From NCBI RefSeq assembly GCF_013122565.1, contig NZ_CP053258.1: a stretch of 64,000 nucleotides of DNA, one strand, 5' to 3'. Each line of letters opens with the position of its first letter. Within the stretch, counting starts at the first letter, position 1. Shown here piece by piece: positions 5,008 through 37,391 of the stretch. The notes under the pieces were generated by a model. It saw only the letters and a list, made by a program, of their open reading frames with translations, did no database searches and had not been told where the DNA came from. Both the position numbers and the translations under genes were made by a program. The stretch is from Escherichia coli (lineage in GTDB: Bacteria > Pseudomonadota > Gammaproteobacteria > Enterobacterales > Enterobacteriaceae).

Positions 5008-5417
5008 TTGGCCAGGCCCAGGCGAGGGATCTCAATAGCCGGGCAGCGATCCATCACCACATTTAACCCGGCATCCCGTGCCAGTACTGCCGCTTGCTCA
5101 TTAATCACCCCCAGTTGCATCCAGAGGGTTTTCGCGCCAATGGCAATAGCTTCCTGTGCCACGCCCCACGCCGCTTCTGAATTACGGAAAACATCGACCA
5201 TATCGACCTTTTCCGGAACGTCTGCCAGCGTGCCATACCCCTGCTGGCCCAGCAGCGTTTTGCCGGCAACTTTTGGCGAAACCGGAATGACGTGATACCC
5301 CTGGTCGAGTAGATATTTCATCACGCGATAGCTGGGACGATCGGGTTTGTCGCTTGCCCCCACCAGCGCAATGGTGTGAGTGGACGTTAAAATACCTGCA
5401 ATATCGGTTTCTTTCAT
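5004..5417 (-). CDS. yccU: CoA-binding domain protein YccU, 137 aa
   Basis: ORF 5004..5498 trimmed to [30 protein letters not shown]; ATG confirmed 5415-5417. Confidence 0.88.
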
Positions 5418-5589
5418 TATTTCCTCCAGACTGTTTAACAAAGTGTACGACAAAGCCGACATGCCAACCATGCAGCTAATACGAATGAATGAGAGCAAAA
5501 GCGGGAAATATGTCTATATGTTAGTAAGTATGATTAAAGAAAAATTTTGACACATTATTATTTGGGCGGTCTTTTGACAGGAGCTACCT

Positions 5590-26885: not shown

Positions 26886-27424
26886 ACTGCCTGTTCGAGG
26901 CTGAAGCTGTCCGCATTAACCTGCGGTTTCAGCCTGTCGTTCATGATTTTAATGGCGTCGCCCAACTGCATCGCTCGACCCGCAATAACAACGCAGGGTT
27001 GTGCCAGCAGGCATAGTGCGGCATTTTCGCCTGATTCAACGACCAGCAAATTGACCTGCTCGTGAGTATCGCTCAACCAAACGCAGGCCGCATCGCCCGG
27101 CATGGGCACCCACATTTCGCCATGGGAAACAAAATGCCAGCTTTTCGGCATTTGCGGTTTGAGATAACGAATTGCTACCAGTGCATTCAGCACCAGTTCG
27201 GCTTTTTGGTCTTTAGATAAATTAAAATCGCGGCACTTTTCTTCAAAAGAGAAATAGAGCGCGGCATCATCAACGCAAAAGCCTGCGGGAGAAAAGGCAT
27301 CTGGAGTCAACATTTTGCGCGCAAAACGTGAGCGAAATAGCATACCATTGGCTAAATCGAGCATCATTCGATCGTGCTCTTCATCGTAATACCAACGCCA
27401 GTTATCGTCTGGTTTAATTCGCAT
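26882..27424 (-). CDS. zapC: Z-ring associated protein ZapC, 180 aa
   Basis: ORF 26882..27460 trimmed to [24 protein letters not shown]; ATG confirmed 27422-27424. Confidence 0.9.
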
Positions 27425-27597
27425 CTGCCTCTCCCCTACCCTATAAAACCGCAGCAACACAATCCATTGTCGCTTCGCTTAATAACCTCAACAATAAAAG
27501 TACAAAATGTCTAAATAAGCAACAGCGATGAATATAAAACAACCAGGGCTGAAAATAAAGCCCTGATTATCTTATAAAGAGGAATTCGAAGAAATAA

Positions 27598-28608
27598 TTA
27601 GATATGGGTAACGATTTCTTTAATCAGCGGCGGACCTTTAAAAATAAAACCAGAATAAATTTGCACCAGTGAGGCACCCGCAGCAATCTTTTCACGCGCA
27701 GCGATAACCGAGTCGATGCCGCCAACACCGATGATCGGTAAGCGACCGTTTAATTCCAGTGACAAGCGGCGAATAATTTCGGTGCTTTTTAACTGAAGCG
27801 GACGACCACTTAAGCCACCGGTTTGATCGCAATTTTTCATTCCCTGAACGAGGGAACGATCGAGTGTGGTATTGGTTGCAATAACGCCATCAATATTATG
27901 GCGAACTAAACTATCGGCAACCTGGATCAATTCTTCTTCAGAAAGATCCGGCGCGATCTTCACTGCGATCGGCACATATTTATGGTGCATCGCTTGCAAA
28001 TCATTTTGCTTATTTTTAATCGCGGTTAAGAGATCATCCAGCGCTTCACCATATTGCAGAGTGCGTAATCCTGGGGTATTCGGCGATGAAATATTGATGG
28101 CGATATATCCCGCATAGGCATAGATTTTTTCCATACAAATCAGATAGTCATCTTTGCCCTGCTCCACTGGCGTATCTTTATTTTTGCCGATATTAATACC
28201 CAGGACGCCGTCATAATGGGCCTTTTTTACGTTCTCTACGAGGTTATCAACGCCAAGATTATTAAAGCCCATACGGTTGATCAAACCTTCGGCATCTACC
28301 AGACGAAAGAGACGGGGCTTGTCATTACCTGGCTGTGGACGTGGCGTGACGGTACCGATCTCGATCGATCCAAATCCCATCGCGCCTAACGCGTCAATGC
28401 ACTCCCCGTCTTTATCAAGACCGGCTGCCAGACCAAGCGGATTTTTAAACGTCAGGCCCATGCAGTTAACAGGTTTCGCAGGCACTTTCTGCCGCACCAG
28501 TGCTTCAAACGGCGTTCCGGTAATGCGGCGTAATTGCTGAAAAGTAAACTCATGAGCGCGCTCTGGATCGAGCTGGAAAAGGGCTTTACGAACGAAGGGG
28601 TAGTACAT
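27598..28608 (-). CDS. pyrD: Dihydroorotate dehydrogenase (quinone) PyrD, 336 aa
   Basis: ORF 27598..28635 trimmed to [21 protein letters not shown]; ATG confirmed 28606-28608. Confidence 0.95.
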
Positions 28609-28694
28609 GAACTCTCCTGGATTCCCGGTGTGCAAACCGGGGGCGTATTATGTGCGAGTTCGGACCAAAAGGGAATTGACCTGCGGCAAAAAAA

Positions 28695-28708
28695 ACGCAA
28701 ACGTTTTC
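28695..28708. promoter_or_regulatory. PurR-box-like operator upstream of pyrD
   Basis: ACGCAAACGTTTTC matches the purine repressor operator core (ACGCAAACGTTT...); about 90 nt upstream of the pyrD ATG. Confidence 0.6.
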
Positions 28709-28718
28709 CGAACCTGTT

Positions 28719-29429
28719 TCAGGGCAGATTTTGCTCCTTCTTTGCACTCAACCCGCCGTAATCATTTATCGCCCGCCAGGCGACATGACACGGTGCGATT
28801 GCCTGACACCAGCTTGTCTGACGCTGGCTTTTAGGCGGCACAACTCCCGCATTACTAAACGCTTTACCATTTACGCTCACCTGAATCAGGTTAATGTAGT
28901 AAGGCGTTGGGTTAGTGAGTTGTACACCCTGCGAATTCCGTGTCCAGCGTAATTGTTGATAAGCTTCCAGCGGGTCGCCCGGCAAACCTTCGGGTCGCCA
29001 GAACAGTTTAAATACCGAGCGCATCGCCACTTTTACGCTCTGATTTTCAACTTTGCCGGATGGCACGCTGGCAATGCTTAACTCAAATAGCGTTTCGCGA
29101 TCCACAGGCAAGATGTCGCTTTCCGTTCTCAGCAAGCGCAACGTGCCTGTAGTACCGGGCTTCAGGAGAATAAGTGGCGGAGCGGCCAGTAATGGTGCTG
29201 GCACTGTCGACGCTTCACCCCCGGCCCAACGCGTTGGTCGATTGATTTTACTGTTAATAAGCCAGGATTCCTGACTGGTATTAGTCAGTAAAATAGATAT
29301 TGATTCTCTGTCTGCCGGAAAGATAAATCGCGTTCCGCCGACCACCACTCCTGCCTGCAATTCACCCGCCACCAGCAGCGATAAAACGGCGAAAATCAAG
29401 AGCGCCAATCTGTTCCACGTATTAGTCAT
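28719..29429 (-). CDS. ycbF: Periplasmic pilus chaperone (PapD-like) YcbF, about 236 aa
   Basis: ORF 28719..29456; start set at MTNTWNRLALLIFAVLSLL (ATG 29427-29429); chaperone-like sequence. Confidence 0.8.
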   Translation of the reverse strand: MTNTWNRLALLIFAVLSLLVAGELQAGVVVGGTRFIFPADRESISILLTNTSQESWLINSKINRPTRWAGGEASTVPAPLLAAPPLILLKPGTTGTLRLLRTESDILPVDRETLFELSIASVPSGKVENQSVKVAMRSVFKLFWRPEGLPGDPLEAYQQLRWTRNSQGVQLTNPTPYYINLIQVSVNGKAFSNAGVVPPKSQRQTSWCQAIAPCHVAWRAINDYGGLSAKKEQNLP

Positions 29430-29937
29430 AATGAAGTACAAATGTCGCGCTGGCATTCACTTTACCCGACTGCACATCGCTATTGACAGGTCGCAATTGC
29501 GCATAAAAAGTTAATGGCACCTTACCGCTATGTAGGCTGTAGTCTTTACTCGCCTGGTTAAGCGGAATCAATATCTTCGCATCATCCAGAATCGCAATTG
29601 CCAGCCCGCTGGCTGCATCCGTACCACTTTCAATGGACAGCATTTCGCTCTGCACTCCATCGGGGGCTCCTGAAAAGGTGACGTCAACCGTGCTGACATC
29701 TGTTCCGCAATCCTGCAAATTAATGATGAAAGATTTCTCCGGGCCATAATTCCCATGAGAAAAACGTGTCAGCGAGACATCGCCTAACTGCACATTGATT
29801 TGCTTGCTATCCTGTGCCAGCACGCATGTATTACGGCGAAACGATCCGCTAATGTTGACCGTGCCATCATGGGCAAATAGCTCACAGCCCCACGTTAATC
29901 CCAGTAAGAACAGAATCCAGATTATCCGTTTCAACAT
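29422..29937 (-). CDS. ycbV: Fimbrial subunit-like protein YcbV, about 171 aa
   Basis: ORF 29422..29985; start set at MLKRIIWILFLLGL signal (ATG 29935-29937); C-terminal ATFVLHYD pilin-like strand. Confidence 0.8.
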   Translation of the reverse strand: MLKRIIWILFLLGLTWGCELFAHDGTVNISGSFRRNTCVLAQDSKQINVQLGDVSLTRFSHGNYGPEKSFIINLQDCGTDVSTVDVTFSGAPDGVQSEMLSIESGTDAASGLAIAILDDAKILIPLNQASKDYSLHSGKVPLTFYAQLRPVNSDVQSGKVNASATFVLHYD

Positions 29938-29944
29938 CACTCCT

Positions 29945-30487
29945 TCACTGGTAAACCAGATCAAAATAGAGAACCGCCGTCGCATTACCGCCCGTTGCTC
30001 CCGCCTTTGTGGACTTATAACGAAGTTGATATTTGAGTGTGTTATCCCCGGCTTTTAAGGGCGTAAGAGGCTGGACCTGATTGAGCGGGATTTCTTGCTG
30101 ACTTTGCGCATCAAGAATTTGCACGGCAATCCCCGTTGCCATACCACCGCTTCCGCCTGTGTCAGTTAGTTTGAGCAGTGTTGGCGCAAGGGTGTCAGCC
30201 TCGCCGCTAAAAAGAACGTCCGCGCCAGTAATACCAGCGGCACAACCGGTGATATCGATATTCAAATCGGCAGCAGTGCTTACGGTATTCGCGACCTGAA
30301 AATCACTGATATTAAAATCGCCAATATGAATATTTTGTAATGCACTTTTGGTGGCGACATCACAGCCCTGATCGACCACATTCCCATAAATATGCATACT
30401 AACTTGTTCAGGCCCAGCCATCCCGACATGGATGTTAAGAAGGCTAAAGAACAAGATAACGCACTGAAATATCGTTTTTTTCTTCAT
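29945..30487 (-). CDS. ycbU: Fimbrial subunit-like protein YcbU, 180 aa
   Basis: ORF 29945..30487; signal peptide; C-terminal AVLYFDLVYQ. Confidence 0.85.
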   Translation of the reverse strand: MKKKTIFQCVILFFSLLNIHVGMAGPEQVSMHIYGNVVDQGCDVATKSALQNIHIGDFNISDFQVANTVSTAADLNIDITGCAAGITGADVLFSGEADTLAPTLLKLTDTGGSGGMATGIAVQILDAQSQQEIPLNQVQPLTPLKAGDNTLKYQLRYKSTKAGATGGNATAVLYFDLVYQ

Positions 30488-30498
30488 ACGTTCACGCG

Positions 30499-34160
<3,662 letters not shown>

Positions 34161-34184
34161 CTCGCTCTCTTAACTGAAGACGTC

Positions 34185-34886
34185 TTACGATTTACAGTTG
34201 AGTTGCGGCGTTTCCGCCCCGTAGTCATTGATAGTTCGGTACGTTACGCTGCTGCTTTGTGCTCCCTTTGGCAGAGAGAATTGGTATTTATCAAAGGGAG
34301 AAATCATTTGATTTTTAACTACTTTTCCACCAATTTTCAGGTCTGTCAGGGTAATGAAATAAGGTGTTGGGTTACTGACCGTAACCATGTCAGCTGACGA
34401 AGTGCAACGCAGTTTCGCCGGAGCCTCGGCTAAGGGATACGCTAAACCTTTTGGTCGCCAGAAAAGTTTGATGACGCTTTGTGTGGCAATCTTCAGGGTA
34501 TTTCCCTCTTCCCGCTTCGTTGTTGAAGGGACTGCCCGTACGCTAGTGAAGAAAAGGGTTTCTCTGTCTTTCGGCAACGGCGCGCCAATGTACATAATGC
34601 GTAACAGATTCTCATTTGCCGGATTCAGCACAAATAGCGGTGGTGTAATAATAAAGTCTGCTGATTTTTTATTATCTGGGGTCATCACCCATGACTGAAT
34701 AAGATAAGGAACATCCGGACTGGTGTTACGTACACCCAGTGAAATTTGCTCTTCACCTTCTGAATAAACAAGACGTGTTGCTGCAAGTCCAATCCCGCCT
34801 TTACCTGCCGCCCATGCGGATGAGCAGCTGAGCAATATTGCCGTTAAACTTACGGTCACAATTCCCTTTGTTATGCAAGTTTTCAT
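34185..34886 (-). CDS. elfD: Periplasmic fimbrial chaperone ElfD (YcbR), 233 aa
   Basis: ORF 34185..34886; PapD-like chaperone sequence. Confidence 0.9.
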   Translation of the reverse strand: MKTCITKGIVTVSLTAILLSCSSAWAAGKGGIGLAATRLVYSEGEEQISLGVRNTSPDVPYLIQSWVMTPDNKKSADFIITPPLFVLNPANENLLRIMYIGAPLPKDRETLFFTSVRAVPSTTKREEGNTLKIATQSVIKLFWRPKGLAYPLAEAPAKLRCTSSADMVTVSNPTPYFITLTDLKIGGKVVKNQMISPFDKYQFSLPKGAQSSSVTYRTINDYGAETPQLNCKS

Positions 34887-34968
34887 AAATAGTCACTCTT
34901 AAAAAATATGAATATCCCCTCCAGAACACTGGAGGGGTACTAATTAATAAAACAATTAATGAGTTCTA

Positions 34969-35508
34969 TTAATAATAGTTAATATGGAAATTTGTTACCG
35001 CATTCACATTACCAGAAGTCGCTTTCCCCGTAGCGATATAATCAACTTTAAAAGTCAACGTCTGATCTCCATCTTGCAACAAAATGTTCCCGGTTTCTGT
35101 GTCTGGCGTGATGGCCGTTCTACCATCATTCATATACATTTGCAGGGCCACGTTTGTAGCAGCATCAGATGAGGCCTGGTTAGCAAACGCTGTAATCTGA
35201 GTAGTATCCGCAGTGCCATTAAAGGTGAACGTTGCATTTTTTGTTACGGTAGTATCACAATCTTTTAATTCAATTGGCACATCAGTTTGCACGCCAGAAA
35301 CCTGACCATTGGTTTGCAACTTCGTGGCACTAACATCTGGCAAAGTCACCACGGAATCTTTCGTCGCAGCGACCAGAGTACAAGCTGGAGCAATAACTTT
35401 ACCATTAAATGTTACTGAGCCATCCGTGATAGCATTATCATCAGCAGCCATAACGCTGGACGTTGCACATACCACAGTTATAAACGCCGTCAATACACTT
35501 TTTTTCAT
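34969..35508 (-). CDS. elfA: Major fimbrial subunit ElfA (YcbQ), 179 aa
   Basis: ORF 34969..35517 trimmed to MKKSVLTAFITVVCATSSVMA; ATG confirmed 35506-35508; C-terminal VTNFHINYY. Confidence 0.88.
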   Translation of the reverse strand: MKKSVLTAFITVVCATSSVMAADDNAITDGSVTFNGKVIAPACTLVAATKDSVVTLPDVSATKLQTNGQVSGVQTDVPIELKDCDTTVTKNATFTFNGTADTTQITAFANQASSDAATNVALQMYMNDGRTAITPDTETGNILLQDGDQTLTFKVDYIATGKATSGNVNAVTNFHINYY

Positions 35509-35863
35509 CGTTATCATCCTGATCTCTTCGTAAATATGATAATGCCTTTAAATGACATTAGACTTAATAATAACAATAATTGTCCGCCATTTAAATCAAG
35601 CATACTAAATCCAATAAGTGACAAATCTTTAATTTATAGATTTCATGAATATTTAAATATTAACTGAACGAGTAATTCATTGATTCAACATCTAATGACT
35701 ATCCAATAAATCAATATGCGTGATATATAAAGCCCTTTCTTTAGTTTATTTTCAGAAAAAGATACACAAAATTTATATTTGGCATTTTCTTGTCTCTCCG
35801 ACAGACTGACCGAATTGTTATCAATGTTAACAAAAAAAGAACAATTGGTTATAAGGAGAGAGT
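35509..35863. promoter_or_regulatory. AT-rich divergent control region between elfA and ssuE
   Basis: 355 bp visibly AT-rich with A/T tracts; holds promoters for both divergent operons. Confidence 0.6.
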
Positions 35864-36439
35864 ATGCGTGTCATCACCCTGGCGGGTAGTCCTCGCTTTC
35901 CTTCTCGCTCCAGCTCCTTGCTGGAATATGCGCGGGAAAAACTAAATGGCCTGGATGTAGAGGTTTATCACTGGAATCTGCAAAACTTCGCCCCGGAAGA
36001 TCTACTTTATGCTCGTTTCGATAGTCCGGCACTCAAGACCTTCACCGAACAGCTGCAACAGGCCGATGGGCTGATTGTCGCCACGCCTGTGTATAAAACC
36101 GCCTATTCCGGTGCGCTGAAAACCCTGCTCGACCTGCTGCCAGAACGCGCTTTGCAAGGCAAAGTGGTGCTACCGCTGGCGACGGGCGGTACGGTGGCTC
36201 ATCTGCTGGCGGTCGATTATGCCCTTAAGCCAGTTTTAAGTACGATGAAAGCCCAGGAGATCCTGCACGGCGTGTTTGCCGATGACTCACAAGTTATTGA
36301 TTACCATCACAAACCCCAGTTCACGCCAAATCTGCAAACCCGTCTTGATACCGCGCTAGAAACTTTCTGGCAGGCATTGCACCGCCGCGATGTTCAGGTT
36401 CCTGACCTTCTGTCTCTGCGAGGTAATGTCCATGCGTAA
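35864..36439 (+). CDS. ssuE: NADPH-dependent FMN reductase SsuE, 191 aa
   Basis: ORF 35864..36439; preceded by AAGGAGAG. Confidence 0.93.
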   Translation: MRVITLAGSPRFPSRSSSLLEYAREKLNGLDVEVYHWNLQNFAPEDLLYARFDSPALKTFTEQLQQADGLIVATPVYKTAYSGALKTLLDLLPERALQGKVVLPLATGGTVAHLLAVDYALKPVLSTMKAQEILHGVFADDSQVIDYHHKPQFTPNLQTRLDTALETFWQALHRRDVQVPDLLSLRGNVHA

Positions 36440-37391
36440 CATCATTAAACTGGCGCTGGCGGGATTGCTTAGCGTCTCTACGATTGTGGTTGCTGCAGAA
36501 TCCTCGCCTGAAGCGTTAAGGATTGGCTATCAGAAAAGCAATATCAGTTCTGTGCTGGCGAAAAATTACCAAATGCTGGAAAAACGCTATCCGCAAACAA
36601 AAATCTCGTGGGTGGAGTTTCCCGCGGGACCGCAAATGTTGGAAGCGTTAAACGTTGGCAGTATTGATCTCGGCAGTACCGGGGATATTCCGCCAATCTT
36701 TGCCCAGGCTGCCGGGGCTGATTTGGTATATGTGGGCGTCGAGCCACCGAAGCCCAAAGCCGAAGTGATTCTGGTGGCAGAAAACAGCCCGATCAAAACC
36801 GTAGCCGATCTTAAAGGTCACAAAGTTGCCTTTCAGAAAGGTTCCAGTTCACACAACCTTTTACTGCGTGCACTGCGTCAGGCCGGACTTAAGTTTACCG
36901 ATATACAACCCACTTACCTGACACCCGCTGATGCCCGCGCCGCGTTCCAGCAAGGTAACGTTGACGCCTGGGCTATCTGGGATCCCTACTACTCTGCTGC
37001 ATTATTACAGGGCGGCGTGCGGGTGTTGAAAGACGGCACCGATCTCAATCAAACCGGATCGTTTTATCTGGCAGCTCGCCCCTATGCAGAAAAAAACGGC
37101 GCTTTTATTCAGGGCGTACTGGCAACTTTCAGCAAGGCTGATGCGTTAACTCGCAGCCAGCGTGAGCAAAGCATCGCTTTACTGGCCAAAACAATGGGTT
37201 TACCGGCACCGGTGATTGCCTCGTATCTGGATCATCGTCCTCCCACCACCATCAAACCGGTGAGCGCTGAAGTTGCCGCCTTACAGCAGCAAACGGCAGA
37301 TCTGTTTTATGAAAACCGTCTGGTGCCGAAAAAAGTCGATATTCGCCAGCGCATCTGGCAGCCCACTCAACTGGAAGGAAAACAATTATGA
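36432..37391 (+). CDS. ssuA: Aliphatic sulfonate ABC transporter substrate-binding protein SsuA, 319 aa
   Basis: ORF 36390..37391 trimmed to [21 protein letters not shown]; ATG 36432 overlaps the ssuE stop. Confidence 0.92.

Follow-up and report, generated by a model that had tools for sequence, protein, structure and literature searches.

The elfADCG-ycbUVF operon of Escherichia coli: a chaperone-usher fimbrial locus with two chaperone genes

Gene content and layout of the locus

The stretch of Escherichia coli DNA analysed here (the window, 64,000 nt) carries seven intact open reading frames that run head-to-tail on its minus strand (Table 1), between ssuE (plus strand, from 35864) and pyrD (minus strand, 27598-28608). 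With the K-12 start codons, none of the seven frames contains an internal stop. A sequence-only reading of the window had placed a fimbrial cluster at 28719-35508, and these limits are exact, the first being the end of the ycbF stop codon and the second the elfA start codon. The shared orientation that it had assigned, strand unnamed, is also right, as is the close packing of the gene ends. The overlaps it had put at 8-10 nt are 10 nt between elfC and elfG (ATGCAGATAA, 31560-31569) and 8 nt between ycbV and ycbF (ATGACTAA, 29422-29429). The remaining gaps are 7-82 nt, that between elfG and ycbU being 11 nt. In the RefSeq (PGAP) annotation ycbF begins instead at an upstream ATG (29456), which lengthens the product to 245 aa and the overlap with ycbV to 35 nt. 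An AAGGAG Shine-Dalgarno sequence precedes the ycbV ATG at 29937.

Table 1. Features of the elfADCG-ycbUVF locus, in window coordinates
Feature	Coordinates	Strand	Description
weak terminator-like hairpin	28688..28709	-	GGAAAACG-UUUG-CGUUUUUU then more U
presence/absence segment	28709..35795		7,087 nt, from blastn of the DA61218 empty site against the window
ycbF	28719..29429	-	second PapD-like chaperone, 236 aa from the K-12 start
ycbV	29422..29937	-	minor pilin, FimF-like adaptor candidate, 171 aa
ycbU	29945..30487	-	minor pilin, 180 aa
elfG (ycbT)	30499..31569	-	putative two-domain tip adhesin, 356 aa; start codon inside the end of elfC
elfC (ycbS)	31560..34160	-	outer-membrane usher, 866 aa
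elfD (ycbR)	34185..34886	-	first PapD-like periplasmic chaperone, 233 aa
elfA (ycbQ)	34969..35508	-	major fimbrial subunit, 179 aa
divergent elfA/ssuE control region	35509..35863		355 nt, AT-rich, GC 0.34

The cluster is, with a probability of about 95%, the chromosomal elfADCG-ycbUVF operon of E. coli, which specifies the ELF (E. coli laminin-binding) fimbriae, also known as Ycb. Gene names and position agree between the RefSeq and K-12 annotations. K-12 b0938-b0944 match the cluster gene for gene and in order, with identical length in all seven cases, and also lie between ssuE and pyrD. Nucleotide identity to K-12 is 97.1-99.2% per gene, with 1-12 amino acid changes per protein, so that the difference is allelic only. 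For elfA it is 98.9% against b0938, with two amino acid changes, and for the elfA-ssuE control region 99.4%. Across the whole cluster, identity to any complete E. coli genome is at most 98.7%. The operon is not new: it is named and annotated in RefSeq and in EcoCyc-style resources, and its adhesion, regulation and distribution have been studied. Its sequence places it among the classical chaperone-usher systems (FGS type), in the type-1-like group.

The control region is divided in comparisons between genomes: 35509-35795 belongs to the presence/absence segment, and 35796-35863 occurs in genomes without the cluster as well. In K-12, SlyA binds the same 355-bp spacer fragment, and the elf/ycb genes, which are listed in the H-NS regulon, are treated as a single cryptic operon activated by SlyA (PMC5797941). 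At the other end, 110 nt separate the ycbF stop from the pyrD start, an interval taken up by the pyrD promoter and leader alone. Ten nt past the ycbF stop, just 5' of that promoter and leader, lies a hairpin with a folding energy of -13.5 kcal/mol. Its z of -0.94 is not significant on its own, so the hairpin is only suggestive of a terminator, and the consensus terminator scan missed it. Consensus scans for promoters and terminators gave 8 hits against 12.8 in shuffled sequence and 9 against 8.0, respectively. Since they did no better than shuffled sequence, they were left out of the evidence. A permissive Rfam scan of 27000-37000 had the PyrD leader as its sole hit, with none in the cluster itself. 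An Hfq aptamer has been published antisense to the ycbU/ycbV junction; folding of 29852-30019 gave z of +1.17 and +1.38 on the two strands, with no notable structure.

Subunits, usher and chaperones

Searches against Pfam, NCBIfam and the sequences in the PDB support every fold proposed in the sequence-only reading, including the pilin folds of ycbU and ycbV and the chaperone fold of ycbF, on which that reading had been staked. The names and roles given to elfA, elfD, elfC and elfG agree with their Pfam domains and with the RefSeq and K-12 annotations. All seven products have a signal-peptide-like N-terminal leader. In ElfA, YcbU, YcbV and ElfG, each pilin domain has a pair of cysteines 39-41 residues apart and a C-terminal strand of alternating hydrophobic residues. 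Dedicated NCBIfam equivalogs are matched by ElfC and YcbF, and by none of the other five products.

In ElfA, the signal peptide (MKKSVLTAFITVVCATSSVMA) is followed by an N-terminal donor strand, the Cys43-Cys84 pair and a C-terminal strand ending in NFHINYY. The Pfam Fimbrial domain (PF00419) is found with E=3.3e-17, and the top NCBIfam match is BcfA (119 bits, cut-off 247). In YcbU, which had been called pilin-like together with YcbV on the basis of C-terminal strand motifs, PF00419 is found with E=5e-14, the cysteine pair is Cys42-Cys82 and the C-terminus reads YFDLVYQ; these C-termini in YcbU and YcbV are indeed the conserved ones of pilin domains. The top NCBIfam matches of YcbU are BcfE (125 bits, cut-off 240) and FimF (75 bits). 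Among solved chains it matches a FimA-type subunit (6erj, 1.4e-15) and FimF (1.5e-10), so that its best solved homologue is of the major-subunit type and not an adaptor. YcbV has the Fimbrial domain with E=1.4e-19, matches BcfF (115 bits, cut-off 238) and FimF (113 bits) in NCBIfam, and aligns with the FimF chain 6e14_F (3.7e-20) and with FimI (1.1e-18).

ElfG differs from the other subunits in its anatomy. The Fimbrial domain is restricted to residues 211-356 (E=1.5e-28), and a receptor-binding domain with six cysteines is predicted at about residues 32-200. The solved structure of LpfD (5afo_A) is matched over both of its domains by residues 33-356 (E=5.7e-27). In NCBIfam, LpfD and BcfD are matched with about equal scores, both below cut-off (BcfD, 123 of 517 bits). 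ElfG has no donor-strand extension, and its features are those predicted for a two-domain tip adhesin. The usher ElfC contains PapC_N (6.6e-49), Usher (2.5e-223) and PapC_C (1.3e-17), and passes the equivalog PRK15193 (1750 bits, cut-off 995). FimD (954 bits) and LpfC (849 bits) come next, and these as best heterologous ushers are consistent with placement of ElfC in the gamma-1 clade, as far as the sequence goes. The exact ElfC protein was found in one public contig only (Logan SRR11451224).

Both chaperones have the two PapD domains, with PapD_N and PapD_C E values of 9.2e-37 and 5.9e-15 in ElfD and of 1.3e-26 and 1.1e-13 in YcbF, which had been proposed as the second PapD-like chaperone of the cluster. 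ElfD best matches BcfB (210 bits, cut-off 365) and FimC (198 bits), the FimC model being aligned end-to-end. YcbF passes its own equivalog, PRK11385 (549 bits, cut-off 357), and aligns with the FimC chain 6e14_C (5.5e-32). By analogy with FimC, the ElfD motifs AATRLVY and VIKLFWRP would carry the anchor residues Arg8 and Lys112. In the FimC alignment YcbF keeps the equivalents of both (GGTRFIF and FKLFWRP) and has no long insertion in F1-G1.

Related systems, distribution and variation

The bcfABCDEFG genes of Salmonella enterica follow the same order: major subunit, chaperone, usher, adhesin, two minor subunits and second chaperone. For the A, B, D, E and F products the positional Bcf counterpart is the top heterologous NCBIfam family, all five falling short of the Bcf cut-offs by the scores given above, and the Bcf usher shares the PRK15193 equivalog passed by ElfC. 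On these sequence grounds Elf/Ycb is related to Bcf, yet is not Bcf. The chromosomal position of Bcf in Salmonella is also different. Bcf has an eighth gene, bcfH, for a thioredoxin-fold thiol oxidoreductase, and there is no such gene at elf/ycb, because pyrD directly follows ycbF. With Fim and Lpf, the assembly machinery and the fold families are in common: YcbV resembles FimF, both chaperones FimC, the usher FimD and LpfC, and ElfG, across both of its domains, LpfD. However, Fim (fimAICDFGH in K-12) has one chaperone, its adhesin gene is last, and elf is not adjoined by a recombinase-controlled switch, its divergent neighbour being ssuE.

A closer parallel is the Auf-like cluster of strain 181.1, an elf/ycb-negative strain in which it lies between glgP and glpD; its designation as Auf follows Wurpel et al. 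2013. It likewise numbers seven genes, of which two encode chaperones, and has the minor-minor-chaperone module complete with its overlap. Its usher is 49% identical to ElfC, and its chaperones pair one-to-one with those of Elf/Ycb. Ycb and Auf have been described as closely related (PMC3559732). The window cluster is nevertheless not Auf, an identity rejected on gene order (the Auf-like adhesin gene is last, whereas elfG comes straight after the usher gene), on locus and on protein identities of 25-49%.

These comparisons bear on whether the locus is one unit or two. It could be that elfADCG is complete and that ycbUVF is an usher-less remnant of, or add-on from, a second system, with no role in ELF assembly. 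A second chaperone is unusual, and in the original ELF work only ycbQRST were reportedly cloned. Of the Keio mutants, those in ycbQ, R, S, T, U and V show lower invasion of HCT-8 cells, and the ycbF mutant is unimpaired (PMC4914927), which suggests that YcbF may be dispensable or redundant and could be taken to set it apart. However, the defects of the ycbU and ycbV mutants speak against a division at elfG, as do the 11-nt gap at that point, the minor-minor-chaperone module after the usher gene in the Auf-like cluster, and the match of all seven positions, in order, to Bcf families. In addition, the literature describes one transcription unit (PMC5797941), and genomes have or lack the 7.1-kb block as a whole. 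A division into two units is accordingly unlikely, although it fares better than the other alternatives to a single elfADCG-ycbUVF operon.

Distribution has been examined in complete E. coli genomes. The cluster is covered to at least 80% in 3,997 of 5,425 matching genomes (about 74% carriers), while the four remaining stretches of the window are each covered to that extent in 5,395-5,422. The claim that no other part of the window is as accessory-like as the cluster is thus borne out. It had also been called a known conserved E. coli cluster; known it is, but universally conserved it is not, since about 26% of 5,426 complete genomes have a clean empty site, with pyrD and ssuE 236 nt apart. 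This share agrees with published work: in Wurpel et al. 2013, Ycb occurs in phylogroups A, B1, D and E but is missing from B2, where the related Auf cluster is present instead, the two being mutually exclusive (PMC3559732). In DA61218, the sole empty-site genome examined, the segment 28709-35795 is replaced by an unrelated 69 nt. No direct repeats flanking the segment were found, nor any meaningful similarity between the 69-nt filler and the ends of the island.

A comparison of subunit alleles across strains, suggested in the sequence-only reading, revealed two main classes of elfA. An allele about 82% identical is found in 38% of the carriers. Its changes are limited to the central part of the protein, and the segments used in assembly, at the donor strand and the C-terminus, do not vary between the divergent alleles.

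Could the operon be a decaying, non-functional relic, cryptic on its way to pseudogenes? Poor laboratory expression and the H-NS regulon listing (PMC5797941) would fit, as would the genomes without the cluster. Some strains have insertions of IS1, IS2, IS30 or ISEsa2, or annotated frameshifts, in elfC, ycbV or ycbF, which indicates that the locus decays in some lineages, and the annotation of S. flexneri 2457T lists ycbQ as a pseudogene (PMC6854044). In the window, however, all seven reading frames are full-length. The dN/dS values against K-12 are 0.06-0.15 for every gene, indicating that the seven genes are under purifying selection. The invariance of the assembly segments across divergent elfA alleles and the published mutant phenotypes (PMC4914927) also argue for function, and a relic is very improbable.

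Least probable of all is a recently acquired mobile genomic island, a reading rejected in spite of the presence/absence polymorphism, the sharp boundaries and a GC slightly below that of the flanks (0.41-0.52 in the cluster, 0.52-0.60 in much of the flanks): integrase, transposase and tRNA are all absent inside and beside the cluster, as are flanking repeats, in keeping with the earlier observation that it has no mobility genes, divergence is like that of the flanks (best match 98.7% for the cluster, 98.2-99.1% for flanks), cluster GC (0.47-0.50) is close to that of the genome, the position between ssuE and pyrD holds in seven of seven carriers inspected, and nearly all matches in complete genomes are chromosomal and single-copy.

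Fimbrial assembly and the second chaperone

The mechanism that we propose for the elfADCG-ycbUVF operon follows the FimC and PapD paradigm. The operon would normally be silent, its AT-rich 355-nt spacer lying in the H-NS regulon and being bound by the activator SlyA (PMC5797941). When expressed, the two start/stop overlaps and the short gaps suggest translational coupling on one transcript. The seven products, given their leaders, are presumably exported by Sec. In the periplasm, ElfD or YcbF would insert its G1 strand into the incomplete Ig fold of the pilins, as FimC and PapD do, and the pilin C-terminus would anchor on the conserved Arg/Lys pair of the chaperone. ElfC would take up the subunits in complex with their chaperones, polymerising them through donor-strand exchange. 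Without a donor strand of its own, ElfG must be at the tip, a placement that its domain anatomy and homology also suggest. On similar grounds, YcbU and the FimF-like YcbV would serve as adaptors or minor subunits, and the shaft would be made of ElfA.

The place of YcbF in this scheme deserves separate comment. YcbF and ElfD are 34% identical. The first Auf chaperone shares 42% identity with ElfD and 29% with YcbF, whereas for the second the values are 32% and 37%. By these identities, and by the retention of the minor-minor-chaperone module and its overlap in the Auf-like cluster, the two are ancient paralogues, older than the split between Elf and Auf. YcbF is most likely specialised for the adjacent minor subunits, or else partly redundant with ElfD. 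A literature search on bcfG and bcfH found no functional study of the second chaperone.

What is worth recording about the operon is that it is accessory, that the boundaries of the indel are exact, and that its major subunit falls into two main allele classes. Why the family keeps two chaperones is a modest, specialist question. One answer, possible but still somewhat doubtful, is that YcbF may be an anciently specialised partner of YcbU and YcbV, and perhaps of ElfG, its gene having stayed next to theirs and translationally coupled to ycbV since before Elf, Auf and Bcf diverged; the central allele split of ElfA would then represent diversification of the shaft driven by immunity or phage, with the assembly interfaces fixed. 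If YcbF is specialised in this way, the operon would be a natural case of one usher served by two chaperones.

Gene content and identity of the cluster

Seven consecutive co-oriented ORFs, elfADCG-ycbUVF, were found at window positions 28719-35508, as the sequence-only reading had described; they lie on the minus strand. All seven have exactly the lengths of K-12 b0938-b0944 and none is interrupted. The cluster is flanked by ssuE and pyrD, an arrangement also seen in K-12 and other RefSeq genomes. Synteny, locus and near-identity identify it as the E. coli ELF/Ycb fimbrial operon. The overlaps of 8-10 nt reported earlier are present, 10 nt between the elfC stop and the elfG start (ATGCAGATAA) and 8 nt between the ycbV stop and the ycbF start (ATGACTAA). 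The RefSeq pipeline starts ycbF at an upstream ATG (29456), which gives a 35-nt overlap instead; both candidate starts yield a plausible signal peptide. Integrase, transposase and tRNA genes are all absent within and beside the cluster, in keeping with the earlier remark that it lacks mobility genes.

Coordinates of the Elf/Ycb genes and adjoining features in the window
Feature	Position	Strand	Remark
elfA	34969-35508	minus	K-12 start codon
elfD	34185-34886	minus	K-12 start codon
elfC	31560-34160	minus	K-12 start codon
elfG	30499-31569	minus	K-12 start codon
ycbU	29945-30487	minus	K-12 start codon
ycbV	29422-29937	minus	K-12 start codon
ycbF	28719-29429	minus	K-12 start codon
ssuE	35864	plus	flanking gene
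pyrD	27598-28608	minus	flanking gene
PyrD leader	28603-28676	minus	RF02373, 97.9 bits, E=2.3e-16
Hairpin and T-run	28688-28709	minus	candidate terminator
Indel	28709-35795		7,087 nt, against the empty site of strain DA61218
Hfq aptamer site	~29852-30019	plus	converted here from the published location

Domain searches and alignments show the domain content and conserved residues of the products. Pfam finds a Fimbrial domain in ElfA, YcbU, YcbV and ElfG (residues 211-356), PapD_N and PapD_C in both ElfD and YcbF, and PapC_N, Usher and PapC_C in ElfC. Every pilin domain has a Cys pair at a spacing of 39-41 residues and ends in a C-terminal strand with alternating hydrophobic residues. ElfA, YcbU and YcbV carry a short N-terminal extension behind the signal peptide, in place of which ElfG has an extra six-cysteine domain of ~170 residues. 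Aligned by sequence to solved structures, ElfG residues 33-356 match the adhesin LpfD over its two domains (5afo_A, E=5.7e-27), YcbV is nearest to FimF and FimI, and YcbU to FimA-type subunits, with FimF next. YcbF aligns with FimC (E=5.5e-32), retains both cleft residues that anchor the subunit C-terminus (GGTRFIF, FKLFWRP) and lacks a long insertion at F1-G1. Matches in Pfam, NCBIfam and solved structures therefore support pilin folds for ycbU and ycbV and a second PapD-like chaperone for ycbF, the three genes for which failure of such support had been named as the refutation, and they agree with the earlier gene-by-gene interpretation as a chaperone-usher cluster.

In NCBIfam, ElfC passes the equivalog cut-off of PRK15193 (1750 bits against 995) and YcbF the cut-off of PRK11385 (549 against 357). 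The top family for the remaining five products is the Salmonella Bcf protein at the matching position (BcfA, BcfB, BcfD, BcfE and BcfF), with BcfD and LpfD about equal for ElfG, and none of the five reaches the cut-off of its Bcf family. Identity with Bcf was rejected because these equivalog cut-offs are missed and bcfH is absent. Identity with Auf was rejected because gene order and locus differ and identity is only 25-49%.

Distribution and alleles

Of 5,426 complete E. coli genomes, the cluster reaches a coverage of 80% or more in 3,997, against more than 99% of genomes for every other part of the window; the cluster is therefore the most accessory-like part of the window, as had been proposed. 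In its description as a known, conserved E. coli cluster, "conserved" needs qualifying, since it is missing from ~26%. The distribution matches that of Wurpel et al. (2013; PMC3559732), where phylogroups A, B1, D and E have Ycb and B2 has Auf, a related type mutually exclusive with Ycb. Most non-carriers align with the query only at its short pyrD and ssuE ends, spanning 382 nt of the record in the ten such rows listed. In the one empty site inspected in detail, that of strain DA61218, pyrD and ssuE are 236 nt apart, an unrelated T-rich 69-nt filler (L002 3209-3277) stands in for the 7,087-nt block, and no flanking repeats are seen at the indel ends. Best-hit identity to other E. coli is 98.7% for the cluster and 98.2-99.1% for the flanks; divergence no greater than that of the flanks argues that this lineage inherited the cluster vertically.

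Across the window, identity to complete E. coli genomes in RefSeq nowhere rises above 99.1%, and the exact ElfC protein occurs on only one public contig (Logan SRR11451224); the complete genomes do not represent this E. coli-like lineage. In strain 7409, an O157:H7 genome, the annotation marks elfC and ycbF as frameshifted, and in LS45 it does so for ycbV. IS1, IS2, IS30 or ISEsa2 insertions break the cluster in other strains (search matches H11-H13, H24 and H81).

Comparison of subunit alleles across strains, as had been suggested, revealed a divergent allele each for elfA and elfG. elfA was found in 4,013 genomes and elfG in 4,044. elfA has two main allele classes: identity to the window's allele is at least 95% in 2,169 of the 4,013 carriers, 90-95% in 294 and 80-90% in 1,537. 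The alternative allele, that of the 1,537 genomes, is not named elfA in RefSeq and is ~82% identical in nucleotides and 84-85% in protein. Changes are confined to residues ~31-174, nearly all within 57-150; the signal peptide and the C-terminal strand hardly vary. The divergent elfG allele (~85% in nucleotides; 84.6% and 319/356 amino acids in LS45) occurs in about 175 genomes, and a further 164 are at 90-95%. The other genes are 94-99% identical in the strains compared. Exposed fimbrial antigens typically vary in this way.

Locus, regulation and function

An Rfam scan around the cluster gave no match other than the PyrD leader, which directly follows ycbF. Only ~32 nt separate this leader from the left end of the presence/absence segment (28708/28709) upstream of it, and the elf block thus borders on the pyrD promoter. 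Downstream of ycbF, cluster-bearing genomes have a weak hairpin followed by an unbroken T-run (GCGTTTTTTTTGCC), where the empty-site genome has TATTTATT. This element might be a terminator shielding pyrD against elf read-through; its fold is statistically not distinctive. On the other flank, this lineage has unusually divergent ssu genes. Identity to six diverse E. coli strains is 91.8-94.6% for ssuA (ssuE-ssuA, 35864-37391), 93.9-97.7% for ssuE and 97.9-99.3% for pyrD.

The seven genes are regarded as a single cryptic operon of the H-NS regulon; SlyA binds the 355-bp ssuE-elfA spacer, and its over-production raises the operon transcript 2.7-fold (PMC5797941). In the window this spacer has 34% GC and is 99.4% identical to K-12. 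An aptamer antisense to the ycbU/ycbV junction (29938-29944) was among the most enriched Hfq binders in genomic SELEX (PMC2887942); its site, centred on that junction, has no unusual predicted fold (z = +1.17). Across all seven genes dN/dS against K-12 is 0.06-0.15. Keio mutants of ycbQ (elfA), ycbR (elfD), ycbS (elfC), ycbT (elfG), ycbU and ycbV are reduced in invasion of HCT-8 cells, that of ycbF is not, and the purified usher binds heparin (PMC4914927).

Two chaperones and fibre assembly

The cluster-negative strain 181.1 has an Auf-like cluster of seven genes (L004 3142-10297), two of them likewise for chaperones, in the order subunit, chaperone, usher, minor, minor, chaperone, adhesin. 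It lies between glgP and glpD with the adhesin gene last, whereas Elf/Ycb lies between ssuE and pyrD. About 549 genomes have no better match to the query than 60-80%, which in the rows listed is a 200-nt stretch of an usher gene. ElfD is 42% identical to the first Auf chaperone and 32% to the second, YcbF 29% and 37%, respectively; between ElfD and YcbF identity is 34%. By this pairing of identities, the chaperone duplication predates the Elf/Auf split. While the adhesin gene moved, the minor-minor-chaperone module was kept intact, which favours some division of labour between ElfD and YcbF. The two may instead be redundant, given the ycbF mutant without phenotype.

The best-supported mechanism of assembly is the standard chaperone-usher pathway. 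Subunits would presumably be exported by Sec, each pilin would be capped by ElfD and YcbF through donor-strand complementation, and ElfC would polymerise them through donor-strand exchange. ElfG would form the tip, YcbV and YcbU the adaptor or minor subunits, and ElfA the shaft; we infer this order of incorporation, as well as the pairing of chaperones with clients. The Elf/Ycb cluster is already known, and it shares its mode of working with Fim, Lpf and Bcf.
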